From the sequence record PQ843332.1: a stretch of 64,000 nt of DNA. The stretch is one strand, 5' to 3'. This document shows, one piece after another, positions 67 through 19,942 of this stretch. Every line of letters starts with the position of its first letter. Within the stretch, counting starts at the first letter, position 1. The position numbers and the translations under genes are program-made. Under the pieces are notes generated by a model that made no database searches, was not told where the DNA came from, and was given only the letters and a program-made list of their open reading frames with translations. The DNA comes from Escherichia phage P-GXEC-L2P5.

Positions 67-604
67 TGAAGCGGGACAAGCGGGACGTCCCGTTTTGTCC
101 CGCCCCTCAAAAACTGCATACTTATTTACTATTATTGCATAAACTAAAAGCGGGACAAGCGGGACGTCCCGATCTGGCACCCCTCTGAAAAGCGCATACC
201 TATTCAGTTTTACTGCATAAACCAAACGGGACAAAAAGCGGGACAAACAAGGGGCGGGACAAAGCGGGACAGCACCCCCGCCCCGCCAGTGCTGCCGCGG
301 GGTTTAGCCGATCGGGACAGGCGGGACAAAGCCCAGTCTTTCAGACTAGACGGGGGTCAATGGCCCCCCTCGCGCGGTTTTTAGCCGATCGGGACAGGCG
401 GGACAAAGCCCAGTCTTTCAGACTAGACGGGGGTCAATGGCCCCCCTCGTCTGAGACTGAATAAGGTTTGTTTTAAATTCGCTGATACAATGTTTCAGAC
501 TAGACGGGGGTCAATGGCCCCCCTCGTCTGAGACTGAATAAGGTTTGTTTTAAATTCGCTGATACAATGTCAACCGGCAACTGCATAAAAAAGGGGGCTG
601 CATA
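67..604. repeat. non-coding repeat module R1: GCGGGACA(A) arrays in direct and inverted orientation, GC-rich tract, repeated strong hairpin, TGCATAAA boxes
   Basis: At least 10 GCGGGACA-type 8-mers; near-palindrome GCGGGACAAGCGGGAC/GTCCCGTTTTGTCCCGC at 70-102; no plausible ORF; paralogous modules at 31353-31610 and 49433-49893. Confidence 0.7.
411..459 (+). terminator. strong stem-loop (cagtctttcagactagacggggg...cccccctcgtctgagactg), terminator-like; also at about 334-371 and 487-535 through tandem duplication
   Basis: Long GC-rich inverted repeat seen directly; no clean U-tract, so terminator function is inferred only. Confidence 0.35.
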
Positions 605-3401
605 ATGGCAGATCAAGCAGCAGGCATCACGCTAAAGGCGGATGTCGCACAAATCAGAACGGCGAATACTGTGCTTGATTCATTCGCACAGAAATCCGAG
701 AACACAGAAAACAAGGTTAAGAAATTAAACGACACACTCGGCAAATCCAAAAAGGTTACGAGTGACGCCGCGGGTGGAATGGAGAAGCTGGCGACTGAAT
801 CGCAGCGCGCCGCAGATGGCATGACGAAACAGGAGCGACTTGCCAACAGGTTAGGCATGTCGACCAAAAACCTGGGCTTTGCCTCGCGTAACGCCGCATT
901 CCAGTTACAGGATATCGCAGTTACGCTTGAGATGGGGATGCCAGTTCACCGCGTCATGCTTCAGCAGTTACCACAGCTTACCGGGGCGTTCGGTGGATTG
1001 GGTAACACGCTGCGTTATGTTGCGGGCTTCCTCGGTCCGGTAGGGATCGGCATTGCAGCACTAACGGCAACGTTAGGCGTAGGAGTGGCGGTTACGTCCC
1101 GTGCCGAAAACCAGGTCGCAGCGCTTAACAAGACGCTGGCGCTGTCGGGTAACATTTCCGGACTCACTGCAAACCAGATCCTGGTGCTATCCGAGAACGC
1201 CGAGCGCATGGGCGGGTCGTTCCGCAAGACGCGTGACACAATCCAGGCGCTGGCGGCGGCGGGTGTGAAAGCGGGTGGTGACTTCGGCGCACTGGCGACC
1301 GCAAGACGCGTGACACAATCCAGGCGCTGGCGGCGGCGGGTGTGAAAGCGGGTGGTGACTTCGGCGCACTGGGGAAGGTAGTGAATGACTTCGCGAAGGT
1401 GTCCAGCCAGCCGATCGAGGATGTGGTCGCGGCGGTGGCGAAGCTGTCAACCGACCCGGTAGGCGGCTTACGGGCATTGGCGGATAAGTATCACGTCGTA
1501 AACGAAGCGCAGATCCAGCAGGTGCAGTCACTAGTGACGGCTGGTCGCGAAACCGAAGCGGTGGCGCTGGCTAACAAAACAGCCGCGGCGTCGTTTACCA
1601 CTATGACCAACGATATTAAGTCCAACATGGGTACGCTTGAGCGGTCGATGAACGTCGTTACATCGGCAGCTAAATCTATGTGGGACGCCATCCTGGATGT
1701 GGGCCGCGCGCAGTCCTCGAATGAGTCAGAGATGAAAGCGCGTGAATCATTGCAGCGACTGACCACGGCTTACTATGCCGAGATGAAAGCGGTCAACGCT
1801 GCCGGTGGGGTGATGACCGAAGCGCAGAAAGCACGTATTAACATGCTTTATAGCGAAATGGTCGCCCAGGAGAAAGTAGTCGCGTCGCTCACCCTGCGCA
1901 ACCGTGCAGAGCGTGACAACGCCAACGCCGCGGAACAATCAGCAAAGGCGAACGAGGAGGCAAACCGCACTGCCCGCGACCGCGCCGCGTTTGAGAAGGA
2001 GTACGCAACCAACGCTAAGCGGCGCGCCGACGAGATCGCCCGCCTCAATTTGCTTAATAAGCGCGGCGTGATTGACGAGAAAGAGCTTGCCGAGGCGGTG
2101 AAGCAGGTAAACGAGCGTTACAAAGACCCCGCCCCGAAGAAGGCCGCCGCTGTTCGAGTCGATGCCGGGCTGAAAATGCTGGAAGTCGCGCGAAGCGAAC
2201 TGGCACAGCTTCGTGAGTCTGGAAAGCAGATCGAAGCCAACTCCTCGACGCAGACCCGAACGCAACGCGCTCAAGCGGCCCTAAACAAGCTGATCGCGGA
2301 TAATGAGCAGTTAATCGCAGCAAGCAAAGAAAGAGCACTAACGGCAGCAGAAAAGCAGCAGATGGTCGAATTCGGACGCGTGAAGGAAGTACGCGAGCAG
2401 ATCGTCGAAGAAGCCAAATTGCTGGACGCGAAAGAGAAGCAGGTCAAGGCGCACGCGCAGATCGACTCCTTCGTTAAGAACCAGAACGCCGAGCTAAAAG
2501 CCACCGCGGCGGGCTATGCGCTTTCCACTCGCGAAGCGGCTAACCTGCGCGAAGAATTGCAGCTAATTGACCGCCTTAAGCGGGTGGGCGCTAGTGATAC
2601 CGATATTGATCTGGCGGTGTCTAAACTGCGCGAAGTGCAGGAAGCACAGACCGGTGCTAACGCCTCACTATGGGATGGATTCAGCCGTGGGCTTAAGGAT
2701 AGCGTGGATGAAATGGGTAACGGCTATACGCAGATGACGTCACTCACAAAATTCACGTTCGGCGCTATGCAGGACACGATGAACGAGTTTTTCGAGACTG
2801 GCAAGCTGAACGCAAAGGATATGGTTAAGTCCATCCTGAGCGAATTAATCAAGCTGGCTACCTCGCAGGCGTTCAAGTCCATCGTTAGCGCTTTCGGTGG
2901 CGACGGCGGCAAAAACGGATTGTTCGGCGCTATCTTCTCGGGCCTCACCAAGAATGCGGACGGCGGAGCGTACGTGGCGACGGCGGCAAAAACGGATTGT
3001 TCGGCGCTATCTTCTCGGGCCTCACTAAGAATGCGGACGGCGGAGCTTACGCAGGGGGCAATCTCGCGGCCTATTCTGGGAAAGTGGTAAGCCAGCCTAC
3101 CTTTTTCAGTTATGGCGTCCAGGCGTTCGCTAAGGGCGCAGGATTGATGGGCGAGGCTGGTCCCGAGGCCATCATGCCGCTGAAGCGCGGGCCGGACGGG
3201 AAACTGGGCGTTGCCGCGTCTGGCGCAGGCGGTGGTATGGTCGTGACGACTAACGTTTACACGGGGACCGGTAAAACGGATACCAGTGTCAGCGGGCCGG
3301 ATCCCCGTACCGCGCAGGCGTTCGGCAAGCAAATCACCGAGGCGGTGAAGGCCGAGATCGTGAAGGCGACGAAACCGGGTGGTGTACTTTACAAACGATG
3401 A
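605..3401 (+). CDS. tail length tape measure protein (frame broken by tandem duplications near 1218-1372 and 2894-3051)
   Basis: ORFs 605-1345, 1342-3090 and 2997-3401 are contiguous; long coiled-coil Ala/Lys/Glu-rich middle; Gly-rich C-terminus; sits upstream of gpM/L/K/I/J-like genes. Confidence 0.75.
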
Positions 3402-3435
3402 TAAAATGGCCCTCACTACAACGTGGGGGCTTTTT

Positions 3436-4112
3436 ATGTCACAAGGTACAATCACACTAACGAAAGGAAGTAAGACCGTCACGGGCGCGGGAACGGCGTT
3501 CCTTAGCGAGATCGGGAAGGTACTCGTATTCGCCCGCATCGACGGCAACGACTACACCGGCAAAATTGCGGCATTCAACTCGAACACGGTCATTACTCTG
3601 AAAGATAACTGGGCCGGTCCGACGAAATCCGGTGCGGCATATGAGCTAATCGAAGCACACGACCCGCGATCAAACGAATGGCCCTATTACTGGCACCGAC
3701 GAAATCCGGTGCGGCATATGAGCTAATCGAAGCACACGACCCACGGTCAAACGAATGGCCCTATTACTGGCACATGCAATTGCAGGGCGGCGGCGACGTG
3801 CAGTTAGCTTTCCGGTCGGAGGAATTGCAATTCGGTAATGGCTACGGACAGAACATCGCGGACGGACCGAACGCAGAAACGAAACAGTTCCCCGTGCAAT
3901 TCGTCGGACTGACTACTGATAAGTGGTGCGACCCTAAACTGGTTTATAACTTTCTGCGCGGTCACTTCGTCAAGCCGTTTGTTGTCACCGCTCCAGATGG
4001 CGAAACAGGTTTATTCGTGGTCGAGCGTTCGAGCTTGTCGTACACTGACAACGGGCACTACACGGCAACTGTGTCCGCCACCCTTAAGACAGCTATTGGA
4101 TTCGTAAGATGA
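3436..4112 (+). CDS. minor tail protein, lambda gpM-like C-terminal domain (frame broken by duplication 3619-3772)
   Basis: ORFs 3379-3726 and 3678-4112; GGAGG-like RBS before ATG 3436; position between tape measure and gpL-like gene. Confidence 0.55.
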
Positions 4113-4897
4113 ATAAACTATATCGCGAGGCGACGCGCTTTGACCCATCGGGACGCGTTCGCCTGATTCACATTGACGCGCAGGACGTGGAGCCTGGCGA
4201 CGGCGCGATCGGCGCGGGCCATCACTATTTTCACTACTGCTTTATTCCGCACACTGCCGAGGATATTGCTGCCGCGGGCGGAGACGAGGACAAGCTAAAG
4301 CCCAAATCTATCTTCTTCGGCGGGCAGGAATTCGAATTCTGGCCCTTCGATTTGTCCGGCCTTAACTTCTCCACATCAACGGCAGCAGAACCGCAGCTAA
4401 CCATCGTTGATATTGGCGGCATAATCACCCGGCTGTCGCTGAATCACGACCAGCTACTGGGCGCGAAGGTTGAAATAATCGACACGTTTGCGAAGTTCCT
4501 GGATAACGGGTCGGATCCAGACCCGACGCAAAAACGTGTCCAGGAGTATTACATCGACTCACAGGTTGGGCGCAATCCAGGCAAGCAGATCACCTTCGCA
4601 TTATCCTCACCCGCGGATATGGAGGGGCAAGTAGTTCCCCGCCGCCAGATCATGAACATGTGCGAATGGGCGCTCAATGGGAAGTACGCCAGCGGGGACG
4701 GCTGCACGTGGAACCTTGCGAAGCCTGGCATCAAGTATTACGACGAGCGAGGTAATGAAGTCATCGCGATGAACATGGACCGATGCGGCGGCTGTTTGTC
4801 CGACTGTTATCTTCGATTTGGGCAAGGGCTTGCGGACCCTAAAGCGGCGGTGCTGGACTTCGGCGGCTTTCCGGGGTCCAGATTAATTAAGGGGTAG
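4109..4897 (+). CDS. minor tail protein, lambda gpL-like
   Basis: Intact 262 aa ORF; C-terminal Cys cluster CGGCLSDC; conserved position; ATGA overlap with upstream gene. Confidence 0.75.
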   Translation: MNKLYREATRFDPSGRVRLIHIDAQDVEPGDGAIGAGHHYFHYCFIPHTAEDIAAAGGDEDKLKPKSIFFGGQEFEFWPFDLSGLNFSTSTAAEPQLTIVDIGGIITRLSLNHDQLLGAKVEIIDTFAKFLDNGSDPDPTQKRVQEYYIDSQVGRNPGKQITFALSSPADMEGQVVPRRQIMNMCEWALNGKYASGDGCTWNLAKPGIKYYDERGNEVIAMNMDRCGGCLSDCYLRFGQGLADPKAAVLDFGGFPGSRLIKG

Positions 4898-4899
4898 TC

Positions 4900-5640
4900 A
4901 TGTTAACGAAGAAGGTTAAAAGCGATATCGCCGCACACGTCGCGGCATGTCTGCCGGAAGAAGCCTGCGGCCTGGTTGTCATGGTGGGCCGCAAACAAGT
5001 TTTTATCCCGTGCGTTAACGTATTCGAAGATCCTACCGGTGCGCGCTCGCGTAAGGACGCGTTTACAATCAGTGATACGGCCTGGATGGATGCTGAGGAT
5101 ATGGGCGATGTCGTTCGCGTAGTCCACTCACACCCAGGTCAGCGCGAGTTAACCCCGTCATTGGGTGACGTCAACGGCTGCAACGGCAGCGGCGTCGTCT
5201 GGACAATTACCAATGAGTATGGCGACTTTATCGAGATCGACCCGGAAGACCCGCCACTGGTGGGTCGCCGATTTGTTCTCGGAATTACGGATTGTTATGG
5301 CCTCGTTATGGACTGGCATAAAAAGCATGGCGTAAACCTGCCAGACTTCCGCGTACCGTACAACTGGTGGGAGACAGGCGAAAACCTGTATATGGACAAT
5401 TGGTATGGAGCGGGCTTCCGGGAGTGTGCGGAGAATACGCCAGGGGCGATGGTCATCATGCAGATTAGCGCGCCAGTGCCTAACCACGCCGGAATCTACC
5501 TTCCGGGCAACCAACTACTACACCATATCTACGGCAGCCTGTCGAGCGTGATCCCCTTCCGGGCAGGATTTTTCCGCGACAATGTGGTTAAATGGGTACG
5601 TCATAAAGACTTACCGTGGGATATCACAGAATGGCAATGA
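4900..5640 (+). CDS. tail assembly protein, lambda gpK-like (JAB/MPN + NlpC/P60 domains)
   Basis: Intact 246 aa ORF; HSHPGQRELTPSLGD (JAMM-like His motif) followed by Cys/His peptidase-like region; position after gpL-like gene. Confidence 0.8.
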   Translation: MLTKKVKSDIAAHVAACLPEEACGLVVMVGRKQVFIPCVNVFEDPTGARSRKDAFTISDTAWMDAEDMGDVVRVVHSHPGQRELTPSLGDVNGCNGSGVVWTITNEYGDFIEIDPEDPPLVGRRFVLGITDCYGLVMDWHKKHGVNLPDFRVPYNWWETGENLYMDNWYGAGFRECAENTPGAMVIMQISAPVPNHAGIYLPGNQLLHHIYGSLSSVIPFRAGFFRDNVVKWVRHKDLPWDITEWQ

Positions 5641-6248
5641 CCACATTTAAATTATACGGCGTCTTAGGGCGTCGTTTTGGTAAAGTGCACAAGCTGGATT
5701 GCTTCACCCCGGGCGAAGGTATCACAGGCCTATGCGTGAAGCTGCCTGGCTTACAGGACTTTCTAATGTCGGCCCACCTGGAAAATATTATGTTCAAGGT
5801 GCGCAAAGGCAATCACACAATGACCGGATACGACGAGTTAGGAGAGTTCCACGGCGACCGCGTAGTTACCATCGCACCGGTTATGACCGGCGCAAAACGC
5901 GGACTAGGCCAATTACTGGCGGGCGTAGCCATCGTGGTGGCGTCGTTCTACACCGGCGGGCTTGCTACTGCCGCTTTCGGAGCTTCCGCCGCGACCGCTG
6001 CCGCTATCGGTACGGCAACGTTTTCGTTCGGGATGTCGATGGCGCTGGGTGGCGTTATGCAATTGCTGTCACCGCAACCGAAAGGATTGCAGACACGGCA
6101 GGACGTGGATAACAAGGCGTCTTATGCGTTCGGCGGACCGGTAAACACGACCGCGCAAGGTACGGCACTTGGTGTATTATGGGGCGAGCGTGAGATCGGC
6201 GGCGCTATTATTTCCGCCGGAATCGTAACCGAGGACTTGAACGAATGA
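5631..6248 (+). CDS. tail assembly protein, lambda gpI-like
   Basis: ORF 5616-6248; N-terminal TFKLYGVLGRRFGK ubiquitin-like region, Gly/Ala-rich hydrophobic C-terminal half; overlaps gpK-like stop. Confidence 0.65.
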   Translation: MAMTTFKLYGVLGRRFGKVHKLDCFTPGEGITGLCVKLPGLQDFLMSAHLENIMFKVRKGNHTMTGYDELGEFHGDRVVTIAPVMTGAKRGLGQLLAGVAIVVASFYTGGLATAAFGASAATAAAIGTATFSFGMSMALGGVMQLLSPQPKGLQTRQDVDNKASYAFGGPVNTTAQGTALGVLWGEREIGGAIISAGIVTEDLNE

Positions 6249-6321
6249 CGATTATCTACGACGTCACAGGCCATAAAGGCGGCGGCGGCAAAGCCGGAAT
6301 CGTAACCGAGGACTTGAACGA

Positions 6322-9300
6322 ATGACGATTATCTACGACGTCACAGGCCATAAAGGCGGCGGCGGCAAACAGCACACCCCACAGGAGACGCCGGACAGCC
6401 TGCATTCGCTGGCTAAAATCCGCATCTTGCTCGCACTGGGCGAAGGTGAGTTCGAAGGCATTACCGACCCTAACGAATTACGGCAGCGCGTATACCTGGA
6501 CGGAACACCGATCCAGAACGCCGACCTGTCAGAAAACTTCCCCGGCGCGCGCGTGGAGTTCCGCCCAGGCACACAGCACCAGGACGTGATCCACGGATTT
6601 TCAGCGGTGGAAAGTGAGCAATCCGTAGGCGTAAAACTGGAAAACGGCACGCCGTGGGTGCGCCAGATTAACGACACCAGTCTTGACGCCGTGCGCATTC
6701 GAATCGGCATTCCGGCCCTGTACACCAACGAAGACAACGGCGACCTGGTGGGCGGGCGCATCGACTACAAAATCGTTGTGTATACGGACAACGCTGATCC
6801 GCGTGAGTTTACCTTCGCTGCCGTTGGTAAAACAATGTCGCTGTACGAGCGCGACCACCGCATCGAGTTACCGCCGAACGTGAATACCGGCTGGCGCGTG
6901 GAAGTTCACCGCACAACGGCAGATTCCACATCGGCGAAAGTGGTGAACGATATTCAGGTACAGTCCATCACTGAGATTATTGACGCCCGCCTGCGTTACC
7001 CGCTAACCGCGCTGTTGTTTGTGGAGTTCGACGCCAAAGCGTTCCAGAACATCCCGCGCGTGTCCATTAAGTGCAAAGGTCGCAAAGTTCTAATACCGAA
7101 CAACTACGACCCGATCAATCATACCTATGCCGGGTACTGGGACGGCACGTTTAAACGCGCATGGACGGATAACCCTGCGTGGCACTGGTACGATATTTGT
7201 ATTACTGAGCGCTTCGGCCTCGGTCGGTTAAACGCGCATGGACGGATAACCCTGCGTGGCACTGGTATGATATTTGTATTACTGAGCGCTTCGGCCTCGG
7301 TCGCCGGATCAAGCCGCAAATGCTAAACAGATATGCGCTCTACCAGATTGCGAAGCGCTGCGATCAACTGGTCAGCGACGGCAACGGCGGGCAGGAAATC
7401 CGATTTAAGAATGATATGTACATCCAGTCGCAGACCGACGCCTGGACCGTGCTTAAGGATTTAGCCGCCATCTTTGCCGGTATGACCTGGTGGGGCAACC
7501 AGATGTTGAATATTGTAAGCGATCAGCCGGTCGCAGCGGTATCGCACACTATCACCAACGCCTCGGTCATTGATGGTCGATTCGACTACGCGTCAGGGAG
7601 CCAGAAAACTCGGTATTCCACGTTCGCTGTAGCATACGGCAACCCGAAGAACCACTATGAAGATGCCATTGCTACGGGACAGCGTGTCGAACTGGTACGC
7701 CGCCATAAGATTAACCGTCTGGATATAACGGCGATCGGCTGTACGCGTGAGTCAGAAGCGCAACGCCGCGGGCACTGGGCGCTAATCTCCAACCAGCTTG
7801 ACCAGCAAGTTAGCTTTAAGGTTGGCATGGAGGGACTTTTCTTTATTCCGGGTAGTGTAGTCGCGATCGCCGATACAAACATTTCTGGCGGCTTCGAGAC
7901 ACGCGGCGGTCGCCTGTTGTCAGATCCTGGCACGCGGACTGTGCTGAACACAGACAGCGAAATCACGTTCCGCCCTGGGGATAAATTCCTGGTACGCACC
8001 GATAGCGGTAATGTGGAGACTCGCGAGATTGCCAGCGTCAACGGCAACAAGGTTACGCTAAAAACCGCACTGGACGCCGACCCGATTCCTGATCAGCCGT
8101 TTTGCGTCGATGGCAACGATATCCAGTTGCAGAAGTTCCGCATCACCGACCTGGAATATGACGACTCTACCAGCACTTTTTCAGTGCGCGGGATCGAATA
8201 CAACGATAGCAAATATGATGCCGTTGATAATGGCGCTCGCCTTGACCCAGGCATCTTTACGCAAGTTCCTGACGGCGTAATGAAGGGGCCGGAGTCCGTG
8301 ACCATTACCCCGTCGCAGATTTCATCGCAAGGCCAGCTAATCACCAACGTGGATATTGTGTTCCCGCCGGTGAAGGATGCCGTTGTTTATGAGATCCAGT
8401 GGCGACGTACCAGCTTGCAGAATATGGCGGTACAGTGGGGAAACGACTGGGTAAACATCCCCCGCACGGCATCGAACGGCGCGCACATCCCTAACGTGTT
8501 CTCCGGTAACTACCAAGCGCGCGTCCGCGCGATCGGTATGGGCGAGATTTCATCCCCGTGGGTGTCGTCCGCTATCACGCCGGTGGAAGGTCGTCTCGGC
8601 GGTCTTAACGCGCCTATCATCACCAACGCGATTTCGGGCCTTCACCAAATTTTGTGGAAGTGGAACCACAACAACGCCGCGACGGATATTTCGTACACCG
8701 AGCTTGAAGTTCGCAAGACGGGTGAAACGGAATGGAAATTCCTAACCAACGTCCCATACCCGGGGTCGGAGTATGCGCAAACGTCGCTGGAGTTCGGCAT
8801 CTATCAGCAGTTGCGCGCCCGTGTAGCGGATAAAATCGGCAACCTGTCGGACTGGTCGGCCCCGTTTGAAGGGCAGGTGAGCAGCAGTTGCGCGCCCGTG
8901 TCGCGGATAAAATCGGCAACCTGTCGGACTGGTCGGCCCCGTTTGAAGGGCAGGTGAGTGACAATGTTGACGAGTACATGAAGGGGCTGGACGACGAGTT
9001 CTTGACTTCTGAGGACGGTAAACGCTTCCAGGAAGCGATCGACACCATGCCGCAAGGCATTTATGAGGCTATGCTCACCGACGCACAGCAATTGTTTAAC
9101 GCCCGCGCCGAGTACAAGGGGATTTATGCAGAAATCTCGGTCGCGTATAACGTGGCGGCAGATGCCCACCAGGCGGTAGCGCAACTGGAAACGTTGATCG
9201 GTACTCGCCTTGACGATGCGGAAGCGGCAATCCACACGTTGCAGACCGCGCAAAGCACGCACGAGCAAGCGTTCGCCCAGTACCAACAAACTGTTGCCGC

Positions 9301-9826
9301 TAAGTTCGGTCAGCAGTCCGCCGCGATCGAGCAGAAGATGACGTCCTCGTTTAACCACTCCGGTGGTAGCGCCACATACAGCCTTAAGGCGGGTGTGACG
9401 TATAACGGTACTTACTATGATGCGGGTATGCAGCTTTCCGTTGTAACGTCGGGCAGCGCGGTTAAATCTCGTATCGCGTTCAAAGCCGACCAGTTCTACA
9501 TCATGCACCCATCTAATGGGTCGCTTTCGTCCGCGTTCATCGTCGACGGAGGACAGGTGTACATCGACACGGCACGAATCAAGAACGCGTCCATTAACTT
9601 CGCACAGATCACGGACACGCTGCGGTCTAATAACTTCGTTGCGGGGTCGTCAGGGTGGAACCTGCCTAAATCGGGTAACGCGGAATTGAACAACGTAACG
9701 GTCCGCGGCAACCTGTACGCCACATCGGGTAACTTCGGGTTTTCTGGTGGGACCGTGACGATCGACAAGACAGGCGTAAACGTGCCGTTACCTGGCGGGG
9801 GGAGGGTGAAAGTCGGGACGTGGTAA
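6322..9826 (+). CDS. host specificity / tail tip protein, lambda gpJ-like (frame broken by duplications near 7151-7304 and 8806-8959; start codon duplicated at 6245 and 6322)
   Basis: ORFs 6322-7326, 7320-8957 and 8888-9826 are contiguous, about 1,100 aa after removing duplicates; conserved gpJ-like N-terminus MTIIYDVTGHKGGGGKQHTP; position after gpI-like gene. Confidence 0.8.
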
Positions 9827-9831
9827 ATGCG

Positions 9832-9853
9832 AAGGGGCCATCCGGCCCCTTTT
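9832..9853 (+). terminator. rho-independent terminator (aaggggccatccggcccctttt), usable on both strands
   Basis: GC stem, short loop, T-run; sits between convergent genes. Confidence 0.6.
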
Positions 9854-10818
9854 CAATACATATTCGGGATGACGAGTAGCGGGGTGGGTACGGCAATATT
9901 TTTACCTGGCATCTGGAATTGCTGCCGTGAGTAGTTGCCGATGACGCGGTTTTTAGCGACGCGCACATTATTACCCGCCATGCGTATTCCGTTCATGCGG
10001 ACGTGGTTATAGCCCCCGTTGTTCTGAATCAGCGCGCCGGTGTATGAAAGCTGGATCAGGCTGTTTCCTATATTCTGGTCGCCCGTGCCGATGTTAATCG
10101 TGCGGTCATATACGAACGGCTTGTTCACCGTCGAGAACGTGACCTGATTCTGGTTATTTGTCATAGTGATCCCGGCCCCTGGCGTGGGTGGTGTATTGTT
10201 GAATATGACAAGGTCCATGTCCACCGAAGCCGCCACATCGTCGATGCCACCATAGGCCGCGTTGCGGACGATAATACTGCCACCATCGAAGCCTACTGAT
10301 ACGTTGCCGTCATCCCAGCGGGCGAACGGGACACCGCTAACGGGCAAGGCCATACTACCGTTGACGCGTACTCGCTGTGCGTATCGGCAGGTCATTAGCT
10401 TAGACACGTTGGATATGGCGGTGAAGTCCGTCGAGTTCTCCACCAGTAAGCCCGCGTTGCGTGAACCAACCGGCAGCACTTCCATTATGACGCCAGCCCA
10501 TTGTGGTAAGCCAGAGTACGCGCCATACGCATCCTCCCCGCGCAGGGTGATACCACTATTCCCGTTGCGGGTAACAGACGTAACGTAAAACGGGTCGGGA
10601 ATTACCAGGGTCTGGTCGAATACCTCAATCACTTCTACCGGGCGAGTGAGCGCGACGACGACCTGCGACCCCTCCGTAAGCGGGGTGTTAATGGTTAGCG
10701 TCTTGTTGGACTGTGCCCGCTGGTTAAAGCTGGTGCAGTATGCTGGCGCGCGAAGCCCTGCGGTGATCTCCATGCGCGGTCTTCCGTCGTTGTAGTCGAT
10801 AAGTATTCCAGCACCCAT
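9853..10818 (-). CDS. hypothetical protein, Asn/Gly-rich with beta-helix-like repeats; co-transcribed with upstream lipoprotein
   Basis: Intact 324 aa ORF; start overlaps lipoprotein stop; repeated N-x-x-(V/I)-x-N segments; absent from second genome copy. Confidence 0.45.
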   Translation of the reverse strand: MGAGILIDYNDGRPRMEITAGLRAPAYCTSFNQRAQSNKTLTINTPLTEGSQVVVALTRPVEVIEVFDQTLVIPDPFYVTSVTRNGNSGITLRGEDAYGAYSGLPQWAGVIMEVLPVGSRNAGLLVENSTDFTAISNVSKLMTCRYAQRVRVNGSMALPVSGVPFARWDDGNVSVGFDGGSIIVRNAAYGGIDDVAASVDMDLVIFNNTPPTPGAGITMTNNQNQVTFSTVNKPFVYDRTINIGTGDQNIGNSLIQLSYTGALIQNNGGYNHVRMNGIRMAGNNVRVAKNRVIGNYSRQQFQMPGKNIAVPTPLLVIPNMY

Positions 10819-10820
10819 TA

Positions 10821-11042
10821 TTACCACTCCCGTGATTTAACTGATACTGTGCCTGAGAAATTGCCGTCGCTATCTGAAGACAGCCCAGTGAATCGCATGT
10901 CCACATCTCCTGCCGGGACTTTTTGCCCATCAACGTAGCGCAACATGCAGCTACCGTACGCAACCGTAATGCACTCGCCGTTGTTGCGTTCTACGGCGCA
11001 ACCGGATAAAAGAACCGCACAAATCATAATTAAAGTTTTCAT
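10821..11042 (-). CDS. small lipoprotein, candidate Llp/Cor-like superinfection exclusion protein
   Basis: Signal peptide MKTLIMICAVLLSGC with lipobox LSGC; AGGGGA RBS; lies between gpJ-like gene and tail fibre; mature part differs completely from paralogue at 61449-61667. Confidence 0.5.
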   Translation of the reverse strand: MKTLIMICAVLLSGCAVERNNGECITVAYGSCMLRYVDGQKVPAGDVDMRFTGLSSDSDGNFSGTVSVKSREW

Positions 11043-11122
11043 GGTATCATCCCCTATATTTGGTTGAGTTTTAGTATTACACCGCTCAACCAGGATTGCA
11101 ACCAATTTAAGAGGATTTAGCT

Positions 11123-12901
11123 ATGGCAGCGGGTACGCTATCCGTAACGAACAATAGCAAGGCTGTAGTAGGGGTCGGCACAACGTTTACCGCGTTTAAA
11201 GCGGGCGACTTCTTAACGCTGGTGGTAGGACAAGTCCCATACACCGTGGCAATCGCGTCCATTGAAAGCGCAACCGCGCTCACGCTGGTACTGCCGTTCG
11301 ACGGCCCAACGGCAACCGGCCTTGCGTGGGATGGCGTTAAGCGCGATACCATGTCGCTGGCAACGATGGGCGTTACCGTACAGGCCCAAAAAGCATTGCG
11401 CTTGATGATTGCAGATGAAAACAACTGGCGTGCAATCTTCGGCGATGCTGAAGAAATCACAGTCACGCTCCCGAACGGGCAAGTTATGCAGGGTATGTCG
11501 TGGGGCTACCTGTCGTCTTTGCTGAAGGAAGTAGACCCCGTTGAGATGCGCAACCTGCAACAACAAGCCGCCGCATCGGAAGCAGCCGCGCAAGGATTCC
11601 GTAACGAGGCGGAAGGCTTCAAGAACGACGCCAACACCATCAAGACGCAGACCAGCCAACTTAAGGCAGATACGCAGGCTATCAAGGACCAAACGAATCA
11701 GATCAAGACTGACACTGGCGTTATTCGTGATGAAGCCAATACCGCGAAGGAGGACGCGCAATCTGCCCGCACTGCCGCGCAAGGATTTCGCAATGAGGCT
11801 GAACAATTCGCTAATAGTGTTAACCCGGAAAACCTACTTGCGAAGGCCAACAACTTAAGTGATGTTGCGGATGTGGCTGTGGCGCGCGAAAACATTGGCG
11901 TAGACCGCCTAACGCAAAACATAACCAGCGGCGAAACACAAATCAGGACTGCGGCGAAGAATAAATGGATCTTCGTTAAGGAAAATGGCGACTGGGGCGG
12001 GTGGGATAATGCCAACAATAAAGCCATGCCGCTGCCGATTGCATTCGGTGGTACGGGGCGCGGCGATAACGTCGCCGAGTTCCGCCAATTCAAATCAAAC
12101 GGCGACACCCAAGATGGGTTAATCATTACGCAGAACGGGTCTGGATTTGGTGGTGTATGCTGGGGGGATTCCGCCAATAAAGTACGCTGGCGCATGGGGA
12201 TTAACGACGCCGCGGGTAATTTTAAGTTGCACTCATATGACGCGTCGGGCGCGTACCGCGATACCTTTATGGAGATCTCTGGATCGGGGATAAGCGGCAT
12301 GGTGTGTCATCGAGATATCATGGTCCGCCCAACAGAGACAGTTCCAGTGTTGTCTTTCGTCCTAAACAACGGAAAAGCTACCGTCCCGGCTGGTAACGTC
12401 CGCACGATGTGGGATACGGTTAACATCAATAGTAATATAATCTATAAATATTTTGAGAAGGGAGACGGCACTGGCTTCACAGTCAACTGGCCCTCATCTG
12501 GTGGTGTTATTGCCCTCCAGGGTACATCAGGAAGGGACTTTAAGAAAGATATTACCGACGCGGACGTTACAGAAGCGGTTGCACGCATTGAACAAATGCG
12601 CATGGTGCGCTACGTGTATAAGGACGATGTGCAGGAGCGCGTCCGCTTCGGCATCATTGCCGAGGAAGCAGAAGAGATTGCGCCTCAATACATCAAACAC
12701 CGTGAGGAGACGTACGATGTGGAGGTGGACCCCGAGACTAACGCCATCGTCGGGGGTAAGACGCGCGACCGTCCGTCGGTAGACGTTAACCCTATCGTGA
12801 TGGACTTGATGGGGTGCGCACAATATGCGATCGCTGAGTGTAAACGCCTGGCGGCGGAAGTGGAGGATTTGAAAGCCGAGATCGCGGCGTTGAAGAAATA
12901 A
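11123..12901 (+). CDS. tail fibre protein with C-terminal intramolecular chaperone (peptidase S74-like) domain
   Basis: Intact 592 aa ORF; coiled repeat region; C-terminal ...RFGIIAEEAEEIAPQYIK...DLKAEIAALKK resembles the auto-cleaving chaperone domain of endosialidase and L-shaped tail fibres. Confidence 0.7.
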   Translation: MAAGTLSVTNNSKAVVGVGTTFTAFKAGDFLTLVVGQVPYTVAIASIESATALTLVLPFDGPTATGLAWDGVKRDTMSLATMGVTVQAQKALRLMIADENNWRAIFGDAEEITVTLPNGQVMQGMSWGYLSSLLKEVDPVEMRNLQQQAAASEAAAQGFRNEAEGFKNDANTIKTQTSQLKADTQAIKDQTNQIKTDTGVIRDEANTAKEDAQSARTAAQGFRNEAEQFANSVNPENLLAKANNLSDVADVAVARENIGVDRLTQNITSGETQIRTAAKNKWIFVKENGDWGGWDNANNKAMPLPIAFGGTGRGDNVAEFRQFKSNGDTQDGLIITQNGSGFGGVCWGDSANKVRWRMGINDAAGNFKLHSYDASGAYRDTFMEISGSGISGMVCHRDIMVRPTETVPVLSFVLNNGKATVPAGNVRTMWDTVNINSNIIYKYFEKGDGTGFTVNWPSSGGVIALQGTSGRDFKKDITDADVTEAVARIEQMRMVRYVYKDDVQERVRFGIIAEEAEEIAPQYIKHREETYDVEVDPETNAIVGGKTRDRPSVDVNPIVMDLMGCAQYAIAECKRLAAEVEDLKAEIAALKK

Positions 12902-12905
12902 ATAG

Positions 12906-12930
12906 AAGGGGCCATGCGGCCCCTTTTTTA
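12906..12930 (+). terminator. rho-independent terminator (aaggggccatgcggcccctttttta), bidirectional
   Basis: Perfect GC stem plus T-run between convergent genes. Confidence 0.65.
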
Positions 12931-13580
12931 GTTTGAGTTTTCCCAGTCCATTTTGCGCCGCACCAGATGGCTTTCGTAATATTCCTTGCCCTCAACTTCC
13001 ACTAAGGGCCAATCGTTAACAATCACGTACGGTTCCGCAATATCCTCAATCACGCCGTGCGCGCTTTGCGGCCCTAACGACACGCCCACCAGGATAACAC
13101 CGGCAACACGACGGGCAAGATACTCACGAGCGCAGCGCGCCTCTACCAGTCCGCGACGGATGCCGCTGGTGGCCTTAACTTCGTAGGTCCATACGGCATC
13201 GATCACATGCTCGCGGAAGTCGGGACCGGACTTCACCTTGCGCTTGCCGACCATGATGATATCGCCGCGACGGCATCGATCACATGCTCGCGGAAGTCGG
13301 GACCGGACTTCACCTTGCGCTTGCCGACCATGATGATATCGCCGCGGTCAATGGTATTGGCGCTAAACAGGCCGGTACGCATGAGCAAGCCTTGAGGAAT
13401 ACAACTGCGCCCTCCTGCCTGCCCTTCAAGATACATGCCTGCAAACATCTCGCCCAGCACACCGACCAGTCGGCTTTGCTTGCACGCGTCAGACTTTAAG
13501 CGCCACTGGTCAAACTCGATGCTTGCTATCATTGCCGCCAGGTGGAATTGTTTACCGGATATTTCATATTCGCCGTACAT
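12928..13580 (-). CDS. hypothetical protein, possible PD-(D/E)xK-type nuclease fold (frame broken by duplication near 13195-13345)
   Basis: ORFs 13233-13580 and 12928-13254 are contiguous; GDII...YEVK resembles D...(E)xK; homologue at 63627-64000. Confidence 0.3.
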
Positions 13581-13622: not shown

Positions 13623-14297
13623 TTATTTCAGTGCGCCAGTCACCAGTGTTTTTTCCATGTTGCGGAAATCTTCCGGCGTCATGAGGATTTTCGATCCGTC
13701 CTCGCCAGTGAGCACGACCATAGGCTGGACGTCCTGATCTGCGATGCCAAAATTAGCGGCTTTAACAGTCTTGCCCACAGATGAAGAAGGATGCCGCGTC
13801 CCGGCGGAGGCGATGGGCCGGCCTTTGAGGCTGTCGAATTGTGCTGCCGTTGTATCGATCTGAATCTCGTCATGTACGGTCATGTAAGACTCGCCCAGCA
13901 GGGCGGCATACCGAATTGTGCTGCCGTTGTATCGATCTGAATCTCGTCATGTACGGTCATGTAAGACTCGCCCAGCAGGGCGGCATACGCCACCAGATCC
14001 ACGATGTTATCTTCCTGGTGCTTACGGTGCTGGCGCACCAGCTTCAGGCAGATCAGGAAGGTCCAGGCTTCTTGCTCTGTAAGTTATCTTCCTGGTGCTT
14101 ACGGTGCTGGCGCACCAGCTTCAGGCAGATCAGGAAGGTCCAGGCTTCTTGCTCGGACAGGTCGCGACCGGTAATCGCGTTAAACACGGCCGCGATTTGT
14201 TTAGCGCTGCGTTCTTCTTTCGCGTTGTCATAGCCGTTTTCTTTCCCGCGCTGTTCCATAGTGGTGGCGGCGTTTTTGCAGTATTCGTATGCTTTCA
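13623..14297 (-). CDS. hypothetical protein (frame broken by duplications near 13835-13985 and 14005-14158)
   Basis: Removing the duplicated units joins ORFs 14053-14340 and 13623-13883 into one ~175 aa frame; GTG start with AAGGG RBS near 14297. Confidence 0.35.
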
Positions 14298-14370: not shown

Positions 14371-14909
14371 GCAAGTGAATTTTGCAACGTTTATTGCGTA
14401 AATTTTCGGGACCAAATCACCACACGCCCGACGAATTGCCGCGATGTTCTTCTCGCAATCTTCAATGATGACCAGTTCAGACACGTCCGCGTAGCAGACC
14501 ATTTTGAACACGGCGCACGCTTTAAACTCAGGCGGCGTTCAATGATGACCAGTTCAGACACGTCCGCGTAGCAGACCATTTTGAACACGGCGCACGCCTT
14601 AAACTCTGGCGGCGGGGTGTCGTCCAGCATGTGGCGCATAAACAACCGGCCTACGGGGAAGACCTCCAATTGCTCGGCGGTGGTGTCCCAGCATTCTCGC
14701 TGCCGGTTGGTCAGATATGCGATCTCGAAGCCTTGCTCTTTATACATGCGCAGTAGCGGCAGCATATCCATGTTCAGGTCTTCGCGGACGTGCGCCTTGT
14801 GCCACTTCGCCCAAAAGGTGGATTTAGTTTTTATCCCCGGCACCAGGTCGGCGCGCGCATCGCTTGATCCATTAATAACGCCATCCAGGTCACAAATCAG
14901 TAATTTCAT
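14356..14909 (-). CDS. HAD-superfamily phosphatase (polynucleotide 3'-phosphatase / nucleotidase-like); frame broken by duplication near 14460-14615, start duplicated near 14853-15005
   Basis: N-terminal MKLLICDLDGVI (HAD motif I DxDG), downstream YLTNR and Lys motifs; GAGGAA RBS. Confidence 0.55.
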
Positions 14910-14999
14910 TTCAATTCCTCAATCAAATTTGCACGAACAATTGATCCATTAATAACGCCATCCAGATCACAAATCAGTAATTTCATTTCAATTCCTCAA

Positions 15000-15182
15000 T
15001 CAAATTTGCACGAACACTACGGGCGGAAAACGTGTCACACACACAAGATGACAGCGGGCAGTCATTACAAGCCAGCCAGTAAGGTCCATGCCCAGGATGT
15101 GTTCCGGACGTGACACACGACGCACTTTGTTCTCCCTCGGGTTTATTTGGTAGCGTTTAACAATTTCGTCCACGACGCGCAT
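15000..15182 (-). CDS. hypothetical small protein (60 aa)
   Basis: ATG at 15182 follows the Dam-like stop; ends TGA at 15000; contains a Cys/His cluster. Confidence 0.3.
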   Translation of the reverse strand: MRVVDEIVKRYQINPRENKVRRVSRPEHILGMDLTGWLVMTARCHLVCVTRFPPVVFVQI

Positions 15183-15189: not shown

Positions 15190-15752
15190 TCAACGACTAA
15201 GATATTCAAGGAGTTCTCCTTCGCTCATTATTTCAATTTGTGCGCTGCCGGTGGGCGGCGCTTCGTCAAAGATTATCAATTGCTGGCACTTGTTATTGCT
15301 CGGCCCGTTTCAATTTGTGCGCTGCCGGTGGGCGGCGCTTCGTCAAAGATTATCAATTGCTGGCACTTGTTATTGCTCGGCCCGACTTCGCCGGTTACAG
15401 CATGTATGAATCGGATCCGCCAGTCCAGAAGAATTATCAGGTTTGCAGTCTTCCGGGCCAGCTTCGCCCACTTCGTCGACGTGTCCTGATTCAGTAGCAT
15501 GACGGTCCGGCGTCCGTGCGCCGCGCACTCGACCCACGGCAGCGGATCGGAATACGGCGGGTTGCACCACTTCCACCCTTTCAACTCTGACCAGTCCGCA
15601 TCGAGCGCGCTGTGCTCTGCCGTGAAGTAACGCGGTAGCAGGTGGTTGGCATCGCTCGCCGCCATGTCATAACGGAATCTGTACTTCCGGCGCAGCGGTT
15701 TAAATAAAGCTGGCGGCGTGCGCCAGCTATCTTTTTGCTCACTCTTCTGCAT
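15190..15752 (-). CDS. DNA N6-adenine methyltransferase, phage Dam-like (frame broken by duplication near 15231-15382; start duplicated 15752/15829)
   Basis: WRTPPALF N-terminus and NPPY catalytic motif typical of phage Dam family. Confidence 0.65.
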
Positions 15753-15815
15753 GATCGGTACTTCCGGCGCAGCGGTTTAAATAAAGCTGGCGGAGTGCGC
15801 CAGCTATCTTTTTGC

Positions 15816-16280
15816 TCACTCTTCTGCATGGTCTGTGTCTATCGCATAAAGTGGAGTCTTACCACCTTTATTGATGACGCGCTGCACGCGCTTTGCTTCT
15901 TCGACACTAAGCGGGCGCGCGTTATGGTAGATGCTGCCGTTTGTAGGGTTGCGCCACGCCATGAGCACAAGGTCTTTACGGTCGATCTTCGTTGTGCGAC
16001 CTTTTGGGCGCACGTACTCCTCGGCACGTTTGCAATGCTCGCGCAAACCTTCGGCAGTGATGCGGTTTAGTGCAACGCTGGTTGTGTATCCGGTGCGCTG
16101 CATAATCCCCATCAATTCGAAAAGCAGTTCGAAACGCTCCTCTAGCTCCTGGCGCACTTTCTTCTCTCCTTCATATAGCGCCTGGTTGGTGTCAGCCACC
16201 GCGTTCGCACGTTCGGCCTGTTCGCGGGCTTCGAGGCATTGCGCGGCCCAGTAATTTTTCTCTTCTTGTAAAATTTTCAT
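15816..16280 (-). CDS. hypothetical protein with N-terminal coiled coil
   Basis: 154 aa ORF; stop overlaps Dam-like start; terminator immediately upstream. Confidence 0.4.
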   Translation of the reverse strand: MKILQEEKNYWAAQCLEAREQAERANAVADTNQALYEGEKKVRQELEERFELLFELMGIMQRTGYTTSVALNRITAEGLREHCKRAEEYVRPKGRTTKIDRKDLVLMAWRNPTNGSIYHNARPLSVEEAKRVQRVINKGGKTPLYAIDTDHAEE

Positions 16281-16685: not shown

Positions 16686-17531
16686 TTTAAATTTTCCTCG
16701 TTAACCGCTATCGCGAAGCCGCGCGGAGTGAGCGACCGGATTAATTTTGTGCGGGCTGATTTGCCTCCGAGGCGACTATACTGCTTCGAGTACCCTTTTT
16801 CAACGAAAACAGGTTTCTTCTCTGGCATACGGAAGCCGTTGCCGGTCCATAAGCAGGTCAGCTTCGGATATGAATCGCGGGCGTTGATGTATTCTTCTCT
16901 GGCATACGGAAGCCGTTGCCGGTCCATAAGCAGGTCAGCTTCGGATATGAATCGCGGGCGTTGATGTATTCCGGGAAGAGCGGGTGTACGTCATCATCCG
17001 GCAGATATCCCCCATACTCCCACGGGTCGAATGAGTGATCCGGTTTGCGCCACTGTGTGGAAAGCACACTGCGCGGATTCTCAATCATATACGGCACTTC
17101 GAAGAAGTCACCCAGGTAAGCGGCGATCTTCGCGGTGCGCACCGCCTTAAGCTGAAAGGCTGGGTCTTTTGCACGCCGAAGAAGTCACCCAGGTAAGCGG
17201 CGATCTTCGCGGTGCGCACCGCCTTAAGCTGAAAGGCTGGGTCTTTTGCACGCTTGCGCGGGAAAGCTGGCGCACCGCTCACTGCCAGATCCGTGCACGG
17301 AGGAAACGCATAGATGATATCTGGCGTACCGAAATCGCCATTCATCGCACGGTCTACAAAGTCCAGATCGATAAACTCATTGCGATAGCGGATTCCGCGA
17401 CCATAAATCCGGTAGTCAAGGTACGACCCGTGATCGGCTTCGGAGTAGTTGAAGCAATAACACTTATGCCCCATCTCGGCAGCACGCTCAATCATCAAGC
17501 CGCTGCCGTCAAACAATGACCAGATTATCAT
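16682..17531 (-). CDS. DNA (cytosine-5)-methyltransferase-like protein (frame broken by duplications near 16816-16971 and 17098-17253; start duplicated near 17456-17608)
   Basis: Motif I LFDGSG, motif IV PPCTD (Pro-Cys), ENP motif; ORFs 17085-17531, 16858-17142 and 16682-16927 are contiguous. Confidence 0.55.
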
Positions 17532-17604
17532 TTATAACACTTATGCCCCATCTCGGCAGCACGCTCAATCATCAAGCCGCTGCCGTCAAACAATGACCAG
17601 ATTA

Positions 17605-19329: not shown

Positions 19330-19355
19330 CGTCATGTCTCCCAAAAATGGCGGGA

Positions 19356-19372
19356 CAAGCCCGCCGTATTAA
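19356..19372 (-). terminator. hairpin ggcgggacaagcccgcc followed by T-run on minus strand (duplicated at 19425-19441)
   Basis: Perfect 6-bp GC stem; lies just upstream of helicase RBS. Confidence 0.35.
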
Positions 19373-19449
19373 TTATTTTTGCTCTGCGCCGGTAATGTTC
19401 TTTCATCGTCATGTCTCCCAAAAATGGCGGGACAAGCCCGCCGTATTAA

Positions 19450-19623
19450 TTATTTTTGTTCTGCACGGTAGCGGCGCTGCCGTTCGCGCTCTTTCTTATT
19501 GCGGCACGATTTGCACTCTGCCCGATACCCGTCTGGACTGCGCGCAGTCTTACCGGTGTATTTGTGGAACTGGGATAGCGGCTTTACACAGCCGCAATTA
19601 CTACAACGTTTTTCTTCAATCAT
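19450..19623 (-). CDS. small zinc-ribbon protein (CxxC...CxxC), hypothetical
   Basis: MIEEKRCSNCG...ECKSCRNKKERERQRR; GAGGA RBS before ATG 19623. Confidence 0.4.
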   Translation of the reverse strand: MIEEKRCSNCGCVKPLSQFHKYTGKTARSPDGYRAECKSCRNKKERERQRRYRAEQK

Positions 19624-19663
19624 CTCTAAAATCCTCGATATGGCTAACCGGCACACTATACCG

Positions 19664-19942
19664 CTATGCGACCAATTCAGCAACCAATAAATCGCAGTCG
19701 GATATGTTGTCGATAACGCGAACGTCAGCACCGCGGCGGGCCATTCGCTCATGTTCACGTACCTGGTGCGGCTTCGGTTTTCCTCCGGGGCGCTTCACTT
19801 CGACGAACACTATTTTGCCGTTGATGATAATAATCAGGTCGGGCGCACCCGCGCGCCCCTCCCATGCCAGTTTTCGGCAGAAGCCGCCAACCTCTTTCAC
19901 CCGTCGCATCAGGTGGCTTTGAATCTTGCCTTCTGGTGTCAT
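19664..19942 (-). CDS. VRR-NUC domain nuclease
   Basis: GAPDLIIIINGKIVFVEVKRPGGKPKPHQ matches VRR-NUC signature (PD...E-V-K). Confidence 0.6.
   Translation of the reverse strand: MTPEGKIQSHLMRRVKEVGGFCRKLAWEGRAGAPDLIIIINGKIVFVEVKRPGGKPKPHQVREHERMARRGADVRVIDNISDCDLLVAELVA

Follow-up and report, generated by a model that had tools for sequence, protein, structure and literature searches.

Eighty-one 77-nt tandem duplications in a chimeric Dhillonvirus sequence very probably reflect computational stitching

Tandem duplications that arise naturally, by replication slippage or unequal recombination, are rare and of variable length, tend to lie in frame or between genes where they are retained, and are passed on to relatives. 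Viral contigs from metagenomes can be chimeras of several strains, some of them concatemer-like, but such contigs normally lack a k-length duplication at each strain switch. Among assembly programs, a largest k-mer of 77 is a standard setting, the overlaps in a strict de Bruijn graph are exact and of length k, and a correct COBRA join retains a single copy of the overlap. SPAdes contigs of circularly permuted phage genomes carry the same 77 bp at either end, one copy of which is removed (PMC9409062). More generally, contigs from de Bruijn assemblers end where a repeat, a region common to several genomes or variation within the population is reached, with end sequences of maxK length left over, and COBRA pairs contig ends that have the same end sequence (PMC10914622).

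The window analyzed here (the whole stretch of DNA, 64,000 nt in length) consists of ordinary Dhillonvirus (HK578-like coliphage) sequence, in which we found 81 head-to-tail duplications whose period is in every case exactly 77 nt. Our own scan of every period from 10 to 399 nt (threshold, at least 47 of 50 positions matching) gave 82 runs at period 77, one run at period 154 that corresponds to the sole three-copy array (23978-24210), and no run in the window at any other period; one double detection reduces the 82 runs to 81 junctions. Tandem-repeat cataloguing, which the first-pass annotation had suggested, was performed with Tandem Repeats Finder and listed ~80 arrays of period 77 with about 2.0 copies each. 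Both searches bear out the pervasive duplications described in that annotation, whose unit of 76-77 bp is correct for 77 but not for 76, and whose count of about 85 has to be lowered to 81. Mismatches between the two copies range from 0 to 7 (none in 13 pairs, one in 33, two in 22, three in 8, and four to seven in 5), so that the 0-3 mismatches previously given describe most pairs but not the last five, and exactly one mismatch occurs in nearly all overlaps across 27.7-47 kb. The pieces between junctions are all longer than 77 nt and of irregular length, from 89 nt for the shortest to 4667 nt. The period-77 duplications cannot have originated by chance.

Like the end repeats of SPAdes phage contigs, the units are direct repeats of exactly 77 nt in a phage assembly, of the sort whose trimming is left to the user; however, the SPAdes repeat is single, exact and terminal, whereas those in the window occur 81 times, are internal and tandem, and are mostly near-exact.

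The window comprises one 49.4-kb unit and the start of a second, with the units being 85-95% identical. Unit 1 (1-49365) is a genome-length walk that carries 57 of the duplications, all of them, as in unit 2, 77+77 nt in tandem and without assigned strand (mismatches are given in parentheses). They begin in noncoding repeat region A (296-449 (2) and 416-569 (0)) and continue through the genes for tape measure (1222-1375 (1) and 2897-3050 (2)), minor tail gp18 (3619-3772 (2)), the tail I/J gene boundary (6216-6369 (0), the exact duplication that the first-pass annotation had chosen as its example) and tail J (7148-7301 (2) and 8805-8958 (1)). Further along are gp26 (13193-13346 (0)), gp27 (13835-13988 (0) and 14003-14156 (3)), gp28 (14461-14614 (2) and 14863-15016 (2)), the Dam methylase (15231-15384 (0) and 15677-15830 (2)), the Dcm methylase (16815-16968 (0) and 17100-17253 (0)) and its boundary with the helicase (17457-17610 (0)), followed by small ORFs at 19040-19193 (1), 19311-19464 (2), 23978-24131 (1) and 24067-24220 (1), the last two forming the three-copy array, and at 24847-25000 (0).

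The middle of unit 1 has duplications in the exonuclease (26334-26487 (3)), small ORFs (26724-26877 (0)), gp46 (27762-27915 (1)), an intergenic stretch (28311-28464 (1)), the helicase-primase (28899-29052 (2), 29920-30073 (2) and 31160-31313 (3)), small ORFs (33422-33575 (1) and, in the holin region, 34062-34215 (1)), the endolysin (34235-34388 (2) and 34522-34675 (2)), small ORFs again (34960-35113 (1)), the repair exonuclease (35560-35713 (1)) and the intergenic sequence upstream of terS (36580-36733 (1)). The large terminase has one (38437-38590 (1)), and the portal gene has the five that had been reported for it (39222-39375, 39403-39556, 39726-39879, 40050-40203 and 40387-40540, 1 mismatch each), followed by three in the head morphogenesis gene (40929-41082, 41335-41488 and 41628-41781, also 1 each). 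The remainder lie in small ORFs (42317-42470 (1), 42758-42911 (5), 45947-46100 (1) and 48918-49071 (6)), the scaffold (43182-43335 (1)), the major capsid (44841-44994 (1)), the head-tail adaptor (45339-45492 (3)), neck proteins (46492-46645 (2) and 47038-47191 (1)), the tail terminator (47328-47481 (2)) and noncoding repeat region A at the unit boundary (49203-49356 (2)).

Unit 2 (49366-64000) repeats the same gene order in a second pass. After a duplication in noncoding repeat region A (49730-49883 (0)), its tape measure gene contains eight (50097-50250 (2), 50663-50816 (3), 51114-51267 (3), 51577-51730 (1), 51940-52093 (2), 52155-52308 (4), 52571-52724 (1) and 52886-53039 (1)), its minor tail gp18 three (53292-53445 (1), 53470-53623 (4) and 53681-53834 (1)), minor tail gp19 one (54079-54232 (7)), tail I two (55768-55921 (1) and 56122-56275 (3)) and tail J seven (56820-56973 (0), 57121-57274 (0), 57401-57554 (2), 57727-57880 (2), 58577-58730 (1), 59253-59406 (3) and 59545-59698 (2)); the last two are in small ORFs (60984-61137 (2)) and gp26 (63547-63700 (2)). 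Only one junction occupies a common site in both units (2897 in unit 1, 52571 in unit 2).

Sixty of the 81 junctions fall inside large genes, including those for terminase, portal, capsid, tape measure, tail J and helicase-primase, and these genes are broken because 77 is not a multiple of 3. When one copy per pair was deleted, 34 of 36 SO-1 proteins aligned as one full-length HSP, as against 15 of 36 in the uncollapsed sequence, and unit 1 shrank to 44,976 nt, a size usual for a genome. The broken frames of most long genes, already recognized in the first reading of the sequence, are thus mended by the collapse.

We scanned eight sequences from relatives, six of them complete genomes and two partial loci, and found no period-77 unit in any of them, the best candidate reaching 39 of 77 matches; relatives with the same units, which the first-pass annotation had put forward as the mark of a real feature, are therefore absent from this set. 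Nor were the junction-spanning words of the tested junctions found in IMG/VR, GTDB genomes or JGI metagenomes. In BLAST alignments to SO-1 and Gluttony, each junction appears as a back-step of exactly 77 nt in reference coordinates: a 3,501-nt query, for example, spans 3,270 nt of SO-1, the difference being 3 x 77, and most BLAST pieces have 0 gaps against the references. The units resemble natural tandem duplications in being head-to-tail and present in two copies, but differ from them in having one length, in occurring as 81 events per 64 kb, in shifting the frame of genes in 60 cases, and in being found in no relative.

Each piece between duplications is 97-100% identical to SO-1, SM_A2, YD-2008.s, Lzu_P3, JL1, PC2 or Gluttony, and the nearest relative switches piece by piece, with the switches located at the duplications. 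Unit 1 is SO-1-like up to ~24.2 kb and then consists of YD-2008.s/Lzu_P3/JL1/PC2-like patches, whereas unit 2 is at first SM_A2/PC2/YD-like and then alternates between Gluttony and SM_A2. The window had been taken, inaccurately, for two copies of one genome: it is a chimera whose path leads through several lineages, each unit being its own patchwork. In holding more than one genome, and in passing repeatedly over the map with different alleles, it resembles multi-strain chimeric or concatemer-like viral contigs from metagenomes, from which it differs by the k-length duplication at its strain switches.

The differences between the two copies of a pair are natural polymorphisms: there are 63 transitions against 41 transversions, 27 of 40 spacings between differences are multiples of 3, and the two differences that we checked in other viral contigs were both present there. 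In unit 2, 16 of 17 first copies match the SM_A2 77-mer exactly, and 13 of 17 second copies match that of Gluttony. All pieces of this unit start with Gluttony alleles and end with SM_A2 alleles. The silent changeover from Gluttony to SM_A2 within these pieces occurs in some cases within only 2-15 nt of shared sequence, and the recombinant pieces were found in no GenBank record.

We built a k=77 graph from 23 related sequences (21 distinct genomes), as well as a six-genome version. In the larger graph, piece ends were forks in 10 of 32 cases, compared to 56 of 4,000 control positions (a ~22-fold enrichment), while most junction 77-mers were not forks (22 of 32 for the first copy, 28 of 32 for the second). 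The six-genome graph contained no instance in which two parallel haplotypes were cut at corresponding positions but carried different 77-mers. Junctions are dense where the lineages are alike and absent from lineage-specific DNA: the more similar the second-closest lineage, the shorter the piece (Spearman -0.55, p 7e-8), and the junction-free stretches are therefore lineage-specific DNA. Breaks that are dense between similar lineages, and piece ends enriched in forks, are shared with the maxK contig breakpoints on which COBRA is based; in contrast to COBRA joins, the overlap is here retained, and the joins also link non-identical homologous ends of different lineages.

The duplications are very probably a computational stitching artefact, in which k=77 pieces of several Dhillonvirus genomes were joined with their overlaps kept. 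We favor this reading because the duplications are missing from relatives, coincide with 77-nt back-steps and with lineage switches, leave intact genes when collapsed, and have the length of an assembler k-mer; the same results uphold the earlier suggestion that a uniform length indicates a systematic process, for which an assembly artefact had been named first, and they support the view that the duplications are not a biological feature. The pieces, either contigs or graph edges, would be the output of a k-mer graph method run at k = 77 on several closely related, pooled Dhillonvirus genomes, and we infer as their source a de Bruijn-type assembler whose largest k was 77 (a SPAdes-style default). 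Adjacent pieces would share 77 nt in genome coordinates, and a later joining or tiling step appears to have left these overlaps untrimmed: if pieces are written end to end without removal of the overlap, the 77 nt appear twice at each join. Since such a pool contains several lineages, successive pieces would often come from different ones. The copies at a join would therefore be homologous without being identical in every case, and the contig as a whole would be a chimera that covers the circular gene map in more than one round. A plain graph accounts for only part of this pattern: only 13 of the 81 overlaps are exact, and the left-to-right direction of the joins is unexplained by it. The many junction 77-mers that are not forks and the lack of parallel haplotypes cut together in the six-genome graph also count against the stitching model. 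This directionality of the joins, together with the short-context switches, needs either an extra rule, such as left-to-right tiling or seeding from a primary genome, or many unsampled haplotypes. If they are a stitching artefact, the duplications are the property of no real phage and only mark the sequence as unreliable.

An alternative that we regard as unlikely is that the sequence was constructed in silico rather than assembled from the reads of a sample, be it by simulating a recombinant or chimera, by walking through a pangenome graph of database genomes, or by a generative model that had been trained on phage genomes; the 77-nt repeats would then be the by-product of concatenating chunks in such a procedure. 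The source lineages come from different continents and hosts (a tsetse symbiont, UK; a human bladder; goat feces, Malaysia; and others from Japan and China), which makes a single natural sample unlikely, and some pieces are nearly devoid of private alleles against just six GenBank genomes (~5 sites in 493-8881 and ~3-5 in 52232-63623). The rigid alternation in unit 2, where a Gluttony-exact second copy leads into a body that drifts to SM_A2 and ends in an SM_A2-exact first copy, also fits a construct, as do haplotype switches in 2-15 nt of shared sequence, which any k=77 graph of known genomes disallows. However, several pieces cannot be composed exactly from the compared genomes: 24.3-49.3 kb reaches at most ~93-94% identity to any single GenBank phage, and private alleles are frequent in 24-36 kb. 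A generator would have no evident reason to use 77, and the irregular piece lengths contrast with those of fixed-size chunked generation. Both the enrichment of forks at piece ends and the dependence of junction density on similarity among lineages are predicted by a k-mer graph, although such a graph could equally come from simulated reads of database genomes. An engineered or in-silico origin leads to the same verdict as stitching, namely that the duplications are not biological.

That the window represents a real DNA molecule, generated during mixed infection by template switching between phages with re-priming a fixed 77 nt upstream, is highly improbable, and the unusual template-switching mechanism raised in the first-pass annotation found no support. 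Duplications do coincide with lineage switches, and their two copies bear the alleles of two parental lineages, as in a copy-choice event with overlap. But with 60 of 81 events breaking genes, essential ones among them, such a molecule could neither have given viable phage nor have been amplified; the tested junctions occur in no relative and no public contig; and, at 64 kb or more and with two non-identical genome units, the molecule would exceed the genome size of roughly 45 kb. The units of real replication concatemers are identical, and a difference of 5-15% between units therefore makes a real concatemer impossible. No mechanism is known by which 81 unrelated sites would all acquire a step of the same 77 nt. 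An artefact of the wet lab or of sequencing chemistry, either chimeric amplification (MDA or PCR jumping) or a raw long read, is just as hard to credit: the window is chimeric, and chimeras among co-amplified related templates are common, but amplification chimeras have no fixed-length duplication at each switch. The substitutions are of a natural type, with a transition bias and almost no indels, unlike the errors of raw long reads, and over lengths of 0.4-1.9 kb certain pieces match references at 99.9-100% identity.

Tandem Repeats Finder reports approximately 80 arrays with a period of 77 nt and about 2.0 copies each across the whole window, and our own scan of all periods from 10 to 399 nt (threshold of at least 47 of 50 matching positions) returned 82 runs at period 77, one run at period 154, and none at any other period. 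The period-154 run is the window's single three-copy array (23978-24210), and with one double detection taken out of the 82 runs there are 81 junctions in total, each the point at which a first copy meets a second copy head to tail. The tandem duplications that the first-pass annotation described throughout the window are thus present in the sequence, and its example at 6216-6369 is an exact 77 + 77 duplicate straddling the boundary between the tail I and tail J genes (the 40-nt word across the join at 6292/6293 reads AAAGGCGGCGGCGGCAAA followed by GCCGGAATCGTAACCGAGGAC). Other particulars of that annotation are revised here: of its unit lengths of 76 and 77 only the latter occurs, every unit in the scan being 77 nt; its estimate of about 85 events becomes 81; and its range of 0-3 mismatches extends to as many as seven per pair. 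Thirteen pairs have no mismatch, 33 have one, 22 have two, eight have three, and five have four to seven; between 27.7 and 47 kb, almost all overlaps contain exactly one.

When aligned by BLAST to SO-1 and Gluttony, two reference phages of the genus Dhillonvirus (HK578-like), every junction steps back through the reference coordinates by exactly 77 nt: a 3,501-nt query with three junctions, for example, spans 3,270 nt of SO-1, the shortfall being 3 x 77. The same scan applied to eight related sequences detected no period-77 repeat (maximum of 39 of 77 matches), and junction-spanning 39-40-mers had no match in IMG/VR, GTDB (one genome per species), or the JGI metagenomes. Exact look-ups of three window proteins likewise returned nothing, proteins containing a junction being without a record.

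Large genes contain 60 of the 81 junctions, including those for the large terminase, portal (five junctions), head morphogenesis protein, major capsid, tape measure, tail J, helicase-primase, and endolysin, and since three does not divide 77, the frame is shifted (by +2) at every one of these 60. Collapse of the window (i.e., deletion of one copy per duplicated pair) raises the number of large SO-1 proteins that align as one full-length HSP from 15 of 36 to 34 of 36, and regains ORFs for tail J (1139 aa), the tape measure (880 aa), the helicase-primase (754 aa), and the portal (506 aa). It also reduces unit 1 (1-49365, one genome-length pass over the gene map) to 44,976 nt, a usual size for Dhillonvirus. 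Because collapse yields both a normal genome size and intact genes, the genomes beneath the duplications are ordinary. The duplications form an overlay that no phage could carry and remain viable, and they are not a real biological feature. Natural tandem duplication, whether by slippage or unequal crossing-over, is rejected given the invariant length, the 60 in-gene events with their +2 frameshifts, and the absence of any counterpart in relatives.

The underlying DNA belongs to Dhillonvirus by similarity as well as by size, its pieces (i.e., the sequence between joins) being 97-100% identical to SO-1, Gluttony, SM_A2, YD-2008.s, Lzu_P3, and JL1. The first 24 kb has 97-100% identity to Sodalis phage SO-1, and 52.6-64 kb has 96-99.8% identity to Escherichia phage Gluttony; single pieces find their best matches in SM_A2 (99.6-100%), YD-2008.s (99.9%), Lzu_P3 (99.7%), JL1 (99.5%), or PC2, all of them members of Dhillonvirus, and the nearest relative switches piece by piece, with switches that coincide with the duplications. 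In self-alignment the window resolves into a 49,365-nt unit and the beginning of another (unit 2, 49366-64000), and since these successive units are only 85-95% identical and come from different lineages, a concatemer of a single phage genome, from replication or packaging, is rejected. Also rejected were the proposals that all pieces are exact substrings of GenBank genomes, best matches being 98.9-99.6%, and that the middle region derives from one 'primary' genome, IMG/VR UViG 3300045988_050049, which has some alleles in common with it at an identity of only 92-98%. The junction at 36580 spans the origin of the SO-1 record without aligning to it, and is thus probably there by coincidence. Matches to 19500-23900 in the phage collection include Campylobacter phage A144 (MG065648, unannotated, 35 kb) and an Acinetobacter phage, both at ~95% identity; these records, appearing as they do among Dhillonvirus matches, are probably mislabelled or contaminated.

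Differences between copies comprise 63 transitions and 41 transversions, 27 of 40 spacings between them are multiples of three, and two alleles that seemed private turn up in other viral contigs. The transition bias, the spacing in threes, and the presence of these alleles in other phages show that the mismatches did not arise by random error or in-silico noise, as do those pieces that are 99.9-100% identical to references. The two copies of a pair are 77-mers that are homologous but derive from different lineages. At 16 of 17 junctions in unit 2, the first copy is the exact SM_A2 77-mer, and at 13 of 17 the second copy is the exact Gluttony 77-mer, the other four differing only at register-ambiguous offsets 0-3. 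All unit 2 pieces (52571-63700) open with Gluttony alleles and close with SM_A2 alleles, and never the reverse: the change from Gluttony to SM_A2 is silent, at times lying inside 2-15 nt of shared sequence, and the return to Gluttony occurs only at the 77-nt back-steps. These recombinant pieces occur in no GenBank record, and their directionality is an algorithmic fingerprint by which the responsible software might be recognised.

The joins also depend on the sequence of other lineages. Piece length, which always exceeds 77 nt (the shortest are 89, 120, and 168 nt), is lower where similarity to the second-closest lineage is higher (Spearman -0.55, p = 7e-8), and the long junction-free stretches (8882-13269, 19388-24054, and 61061-63623) consist of DNA present in one lineage only. 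Slippage within one genome cannot produce such a dependence; a graph of a mixture can. The polymorphism profile around junctions, based on six references, shows no more than a weak bump immediately after the 77-mer.

Untrimmed k = 77 joins of multi-lineage pieces are the most economical explanation of the duplications. For reads of ~150 nt, SPAdes by default uses k values up to 77. De Bruijn-graph assemblers break contigs at multiple paths, which arise from repeats, regions shared between genomes, and variation within populations, and the fragments keep end sequences of length maxK (PMC10914622); in SPAdes assemblies, contigs of circularly permuted phage genomes have identical 77-bp ends, one copy of which needs manual removal (PMC9409062). 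What these two sources support is confined to the 77-bp overlap as a signature of SPAdes and to the equality of overlap and maxK. A k = 77 step run on a pool of Dhillonvirus lineages would have yielded the pieces, which would then have been put in order and output end to end with the 77-nt overlap left untrimmed, in a walk that would circle the gene map more than once and choose different lineages on each pass. The fixed length, the k-length back-step, the absence from relatives, and the restoration of genome and genes by collapse support an assembly artefact, the leading suggestion of the first-pass annotation, and a single repeat length equal to an assembler k-mer size and pieces longer than k are further features of a k-overlap. 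The copies themselves depart from this pattern: overlaps in a strict de Bruijn graph are exact, whereas in the window 68 of 81 are inexact, differing at one to seven natural polymorphic sites. With only 13 exact pairs, the joins therefore link homologous ends of different haplotypes and are not a plain concatenation of adjacent graph edges.

In a limited k = 77 graph built from 23 related sequences (21 distinct genomes), forks were strongly enriched over controls (56 of 4,000 positions), with 10 among the 32 first copies and 4 among the 32 second copies; most joins, even so, are not forks there. The corresponding six-genome graph had forks at 7 of 81 junctions versus 26 of 3,000 controls, and its in-register forks, identical in 25 cases and non-identical in none, did not reproduce parallel haplotypes cut in register. 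This null result, together with the inexact overlaps, the one-way order from Gluttony to SM_A2, and the lack of a GenBank match, points either to many unsampled haplotypes or to a left-to-right rule, of which tiling or seeding on a primary genome would be examples. We know of no program, among the SPAdes scaffolder and gap closer, COBRA, Recycler/SCAPP, Phables, Velvet, ABySS, Inchworm, PenguiN, polishing windows, and simplitig-type walks, that explains a fixed 77-nt overlap with non-identical copies and a left-to-right Gluttony-to-SM_A2 pattern. Temperate-phage attachment 'core regions' with a stable size of 77 bp have been described in a preprint on marine metagenomes (bioRxiv 10.1101/2021.07.15.452192), and may be k = 77 contig-end overlaps mistaken for biology.

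Private alleles are very few in 493-8881 and 52232-63623 when compared to just six Dhillonvirus genomes from GenBank, whose sources and continents of origin are unrelated, the source phages being widely dispersed by geography and host. Their scarcity, combined with these dispersed origins, suggests that the pool may have consisted of database genomes, or of reads simulated from them, rather than one natural or environmental sample; the verdict that the duplications are not biological is unchanged in either case. That the sequence was itself deliberately simulated or generated is unlikely; such an origin agrees with the regular alternation and the missing private alleles, but accounts neither for the number 77 nor for the dependence on similarity between lineages. 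A physically real product of template switching is very improbable: the duplications never vary in length, they destroy essential genes, the molecule would measure at least 64 kb and have units that are not identical, and the junctions occur nowhere else. A wet-lab chimera or raw long read is equally hard to credit when the duplication length is fixed and the differences are substitution-only and of natural type. We attach almost no probability to the duplications being in the actual DNA of a mixed Dhillonvirus infection, where copy-choice would re-prime a fixed 77 nt upstream each time a replisome or recombinase switched genomes.

The duplications have no biological importance, and their practical value is in quality control: record PQ843332.1 is a chimera of several lineages and contains 81 false frameshifts, and its gene calls, protein fragments, genome length, and 'novel' recombinant junctions should be kept out of catalogues and comparative analyses. 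The signature (i.e., many fixed-length tandem duplications that match the assembler k in length and are lost in relatives) makes for an easy screen that could flag other faulty records or assemblies.

Natural repeats are also present in the window. The octamer GCGGGACA, which clusters at 69-405, 31443-31545, and 49436-49693, occurs 27 times versus 3.3 expected, a count reached in 0 of 100 shuffles, and Tandem Repeats Finder detected a natural 79-nt tandem repeat at 69-234. Both match the non-coding 'repeat regions A and B' of the SO-1 annotation and look like putative iteron-type protein-binding arrays; they have no connection to the 77-nt artefact. The DNA polymerase ORF (20608-23796, minus strand) encodes 1062 aa in the window and in SO-1, versus 763 aa (2292 nt) in Gluttony and other relatives. 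No Rfam intron family matched anywhere in the window, and Pfam returned only a partial DNA_pol_A match for the polymerase and none for a nested ORF of 252 aa that lies in another frame within the extra ~900 nt (21554-22312, minus strand). This nested ORF is annotated in SO-1 as the HNH endonuclease of a 'type I self-splicing intron', and the insertion itself may be an intron, an intein, or another element.
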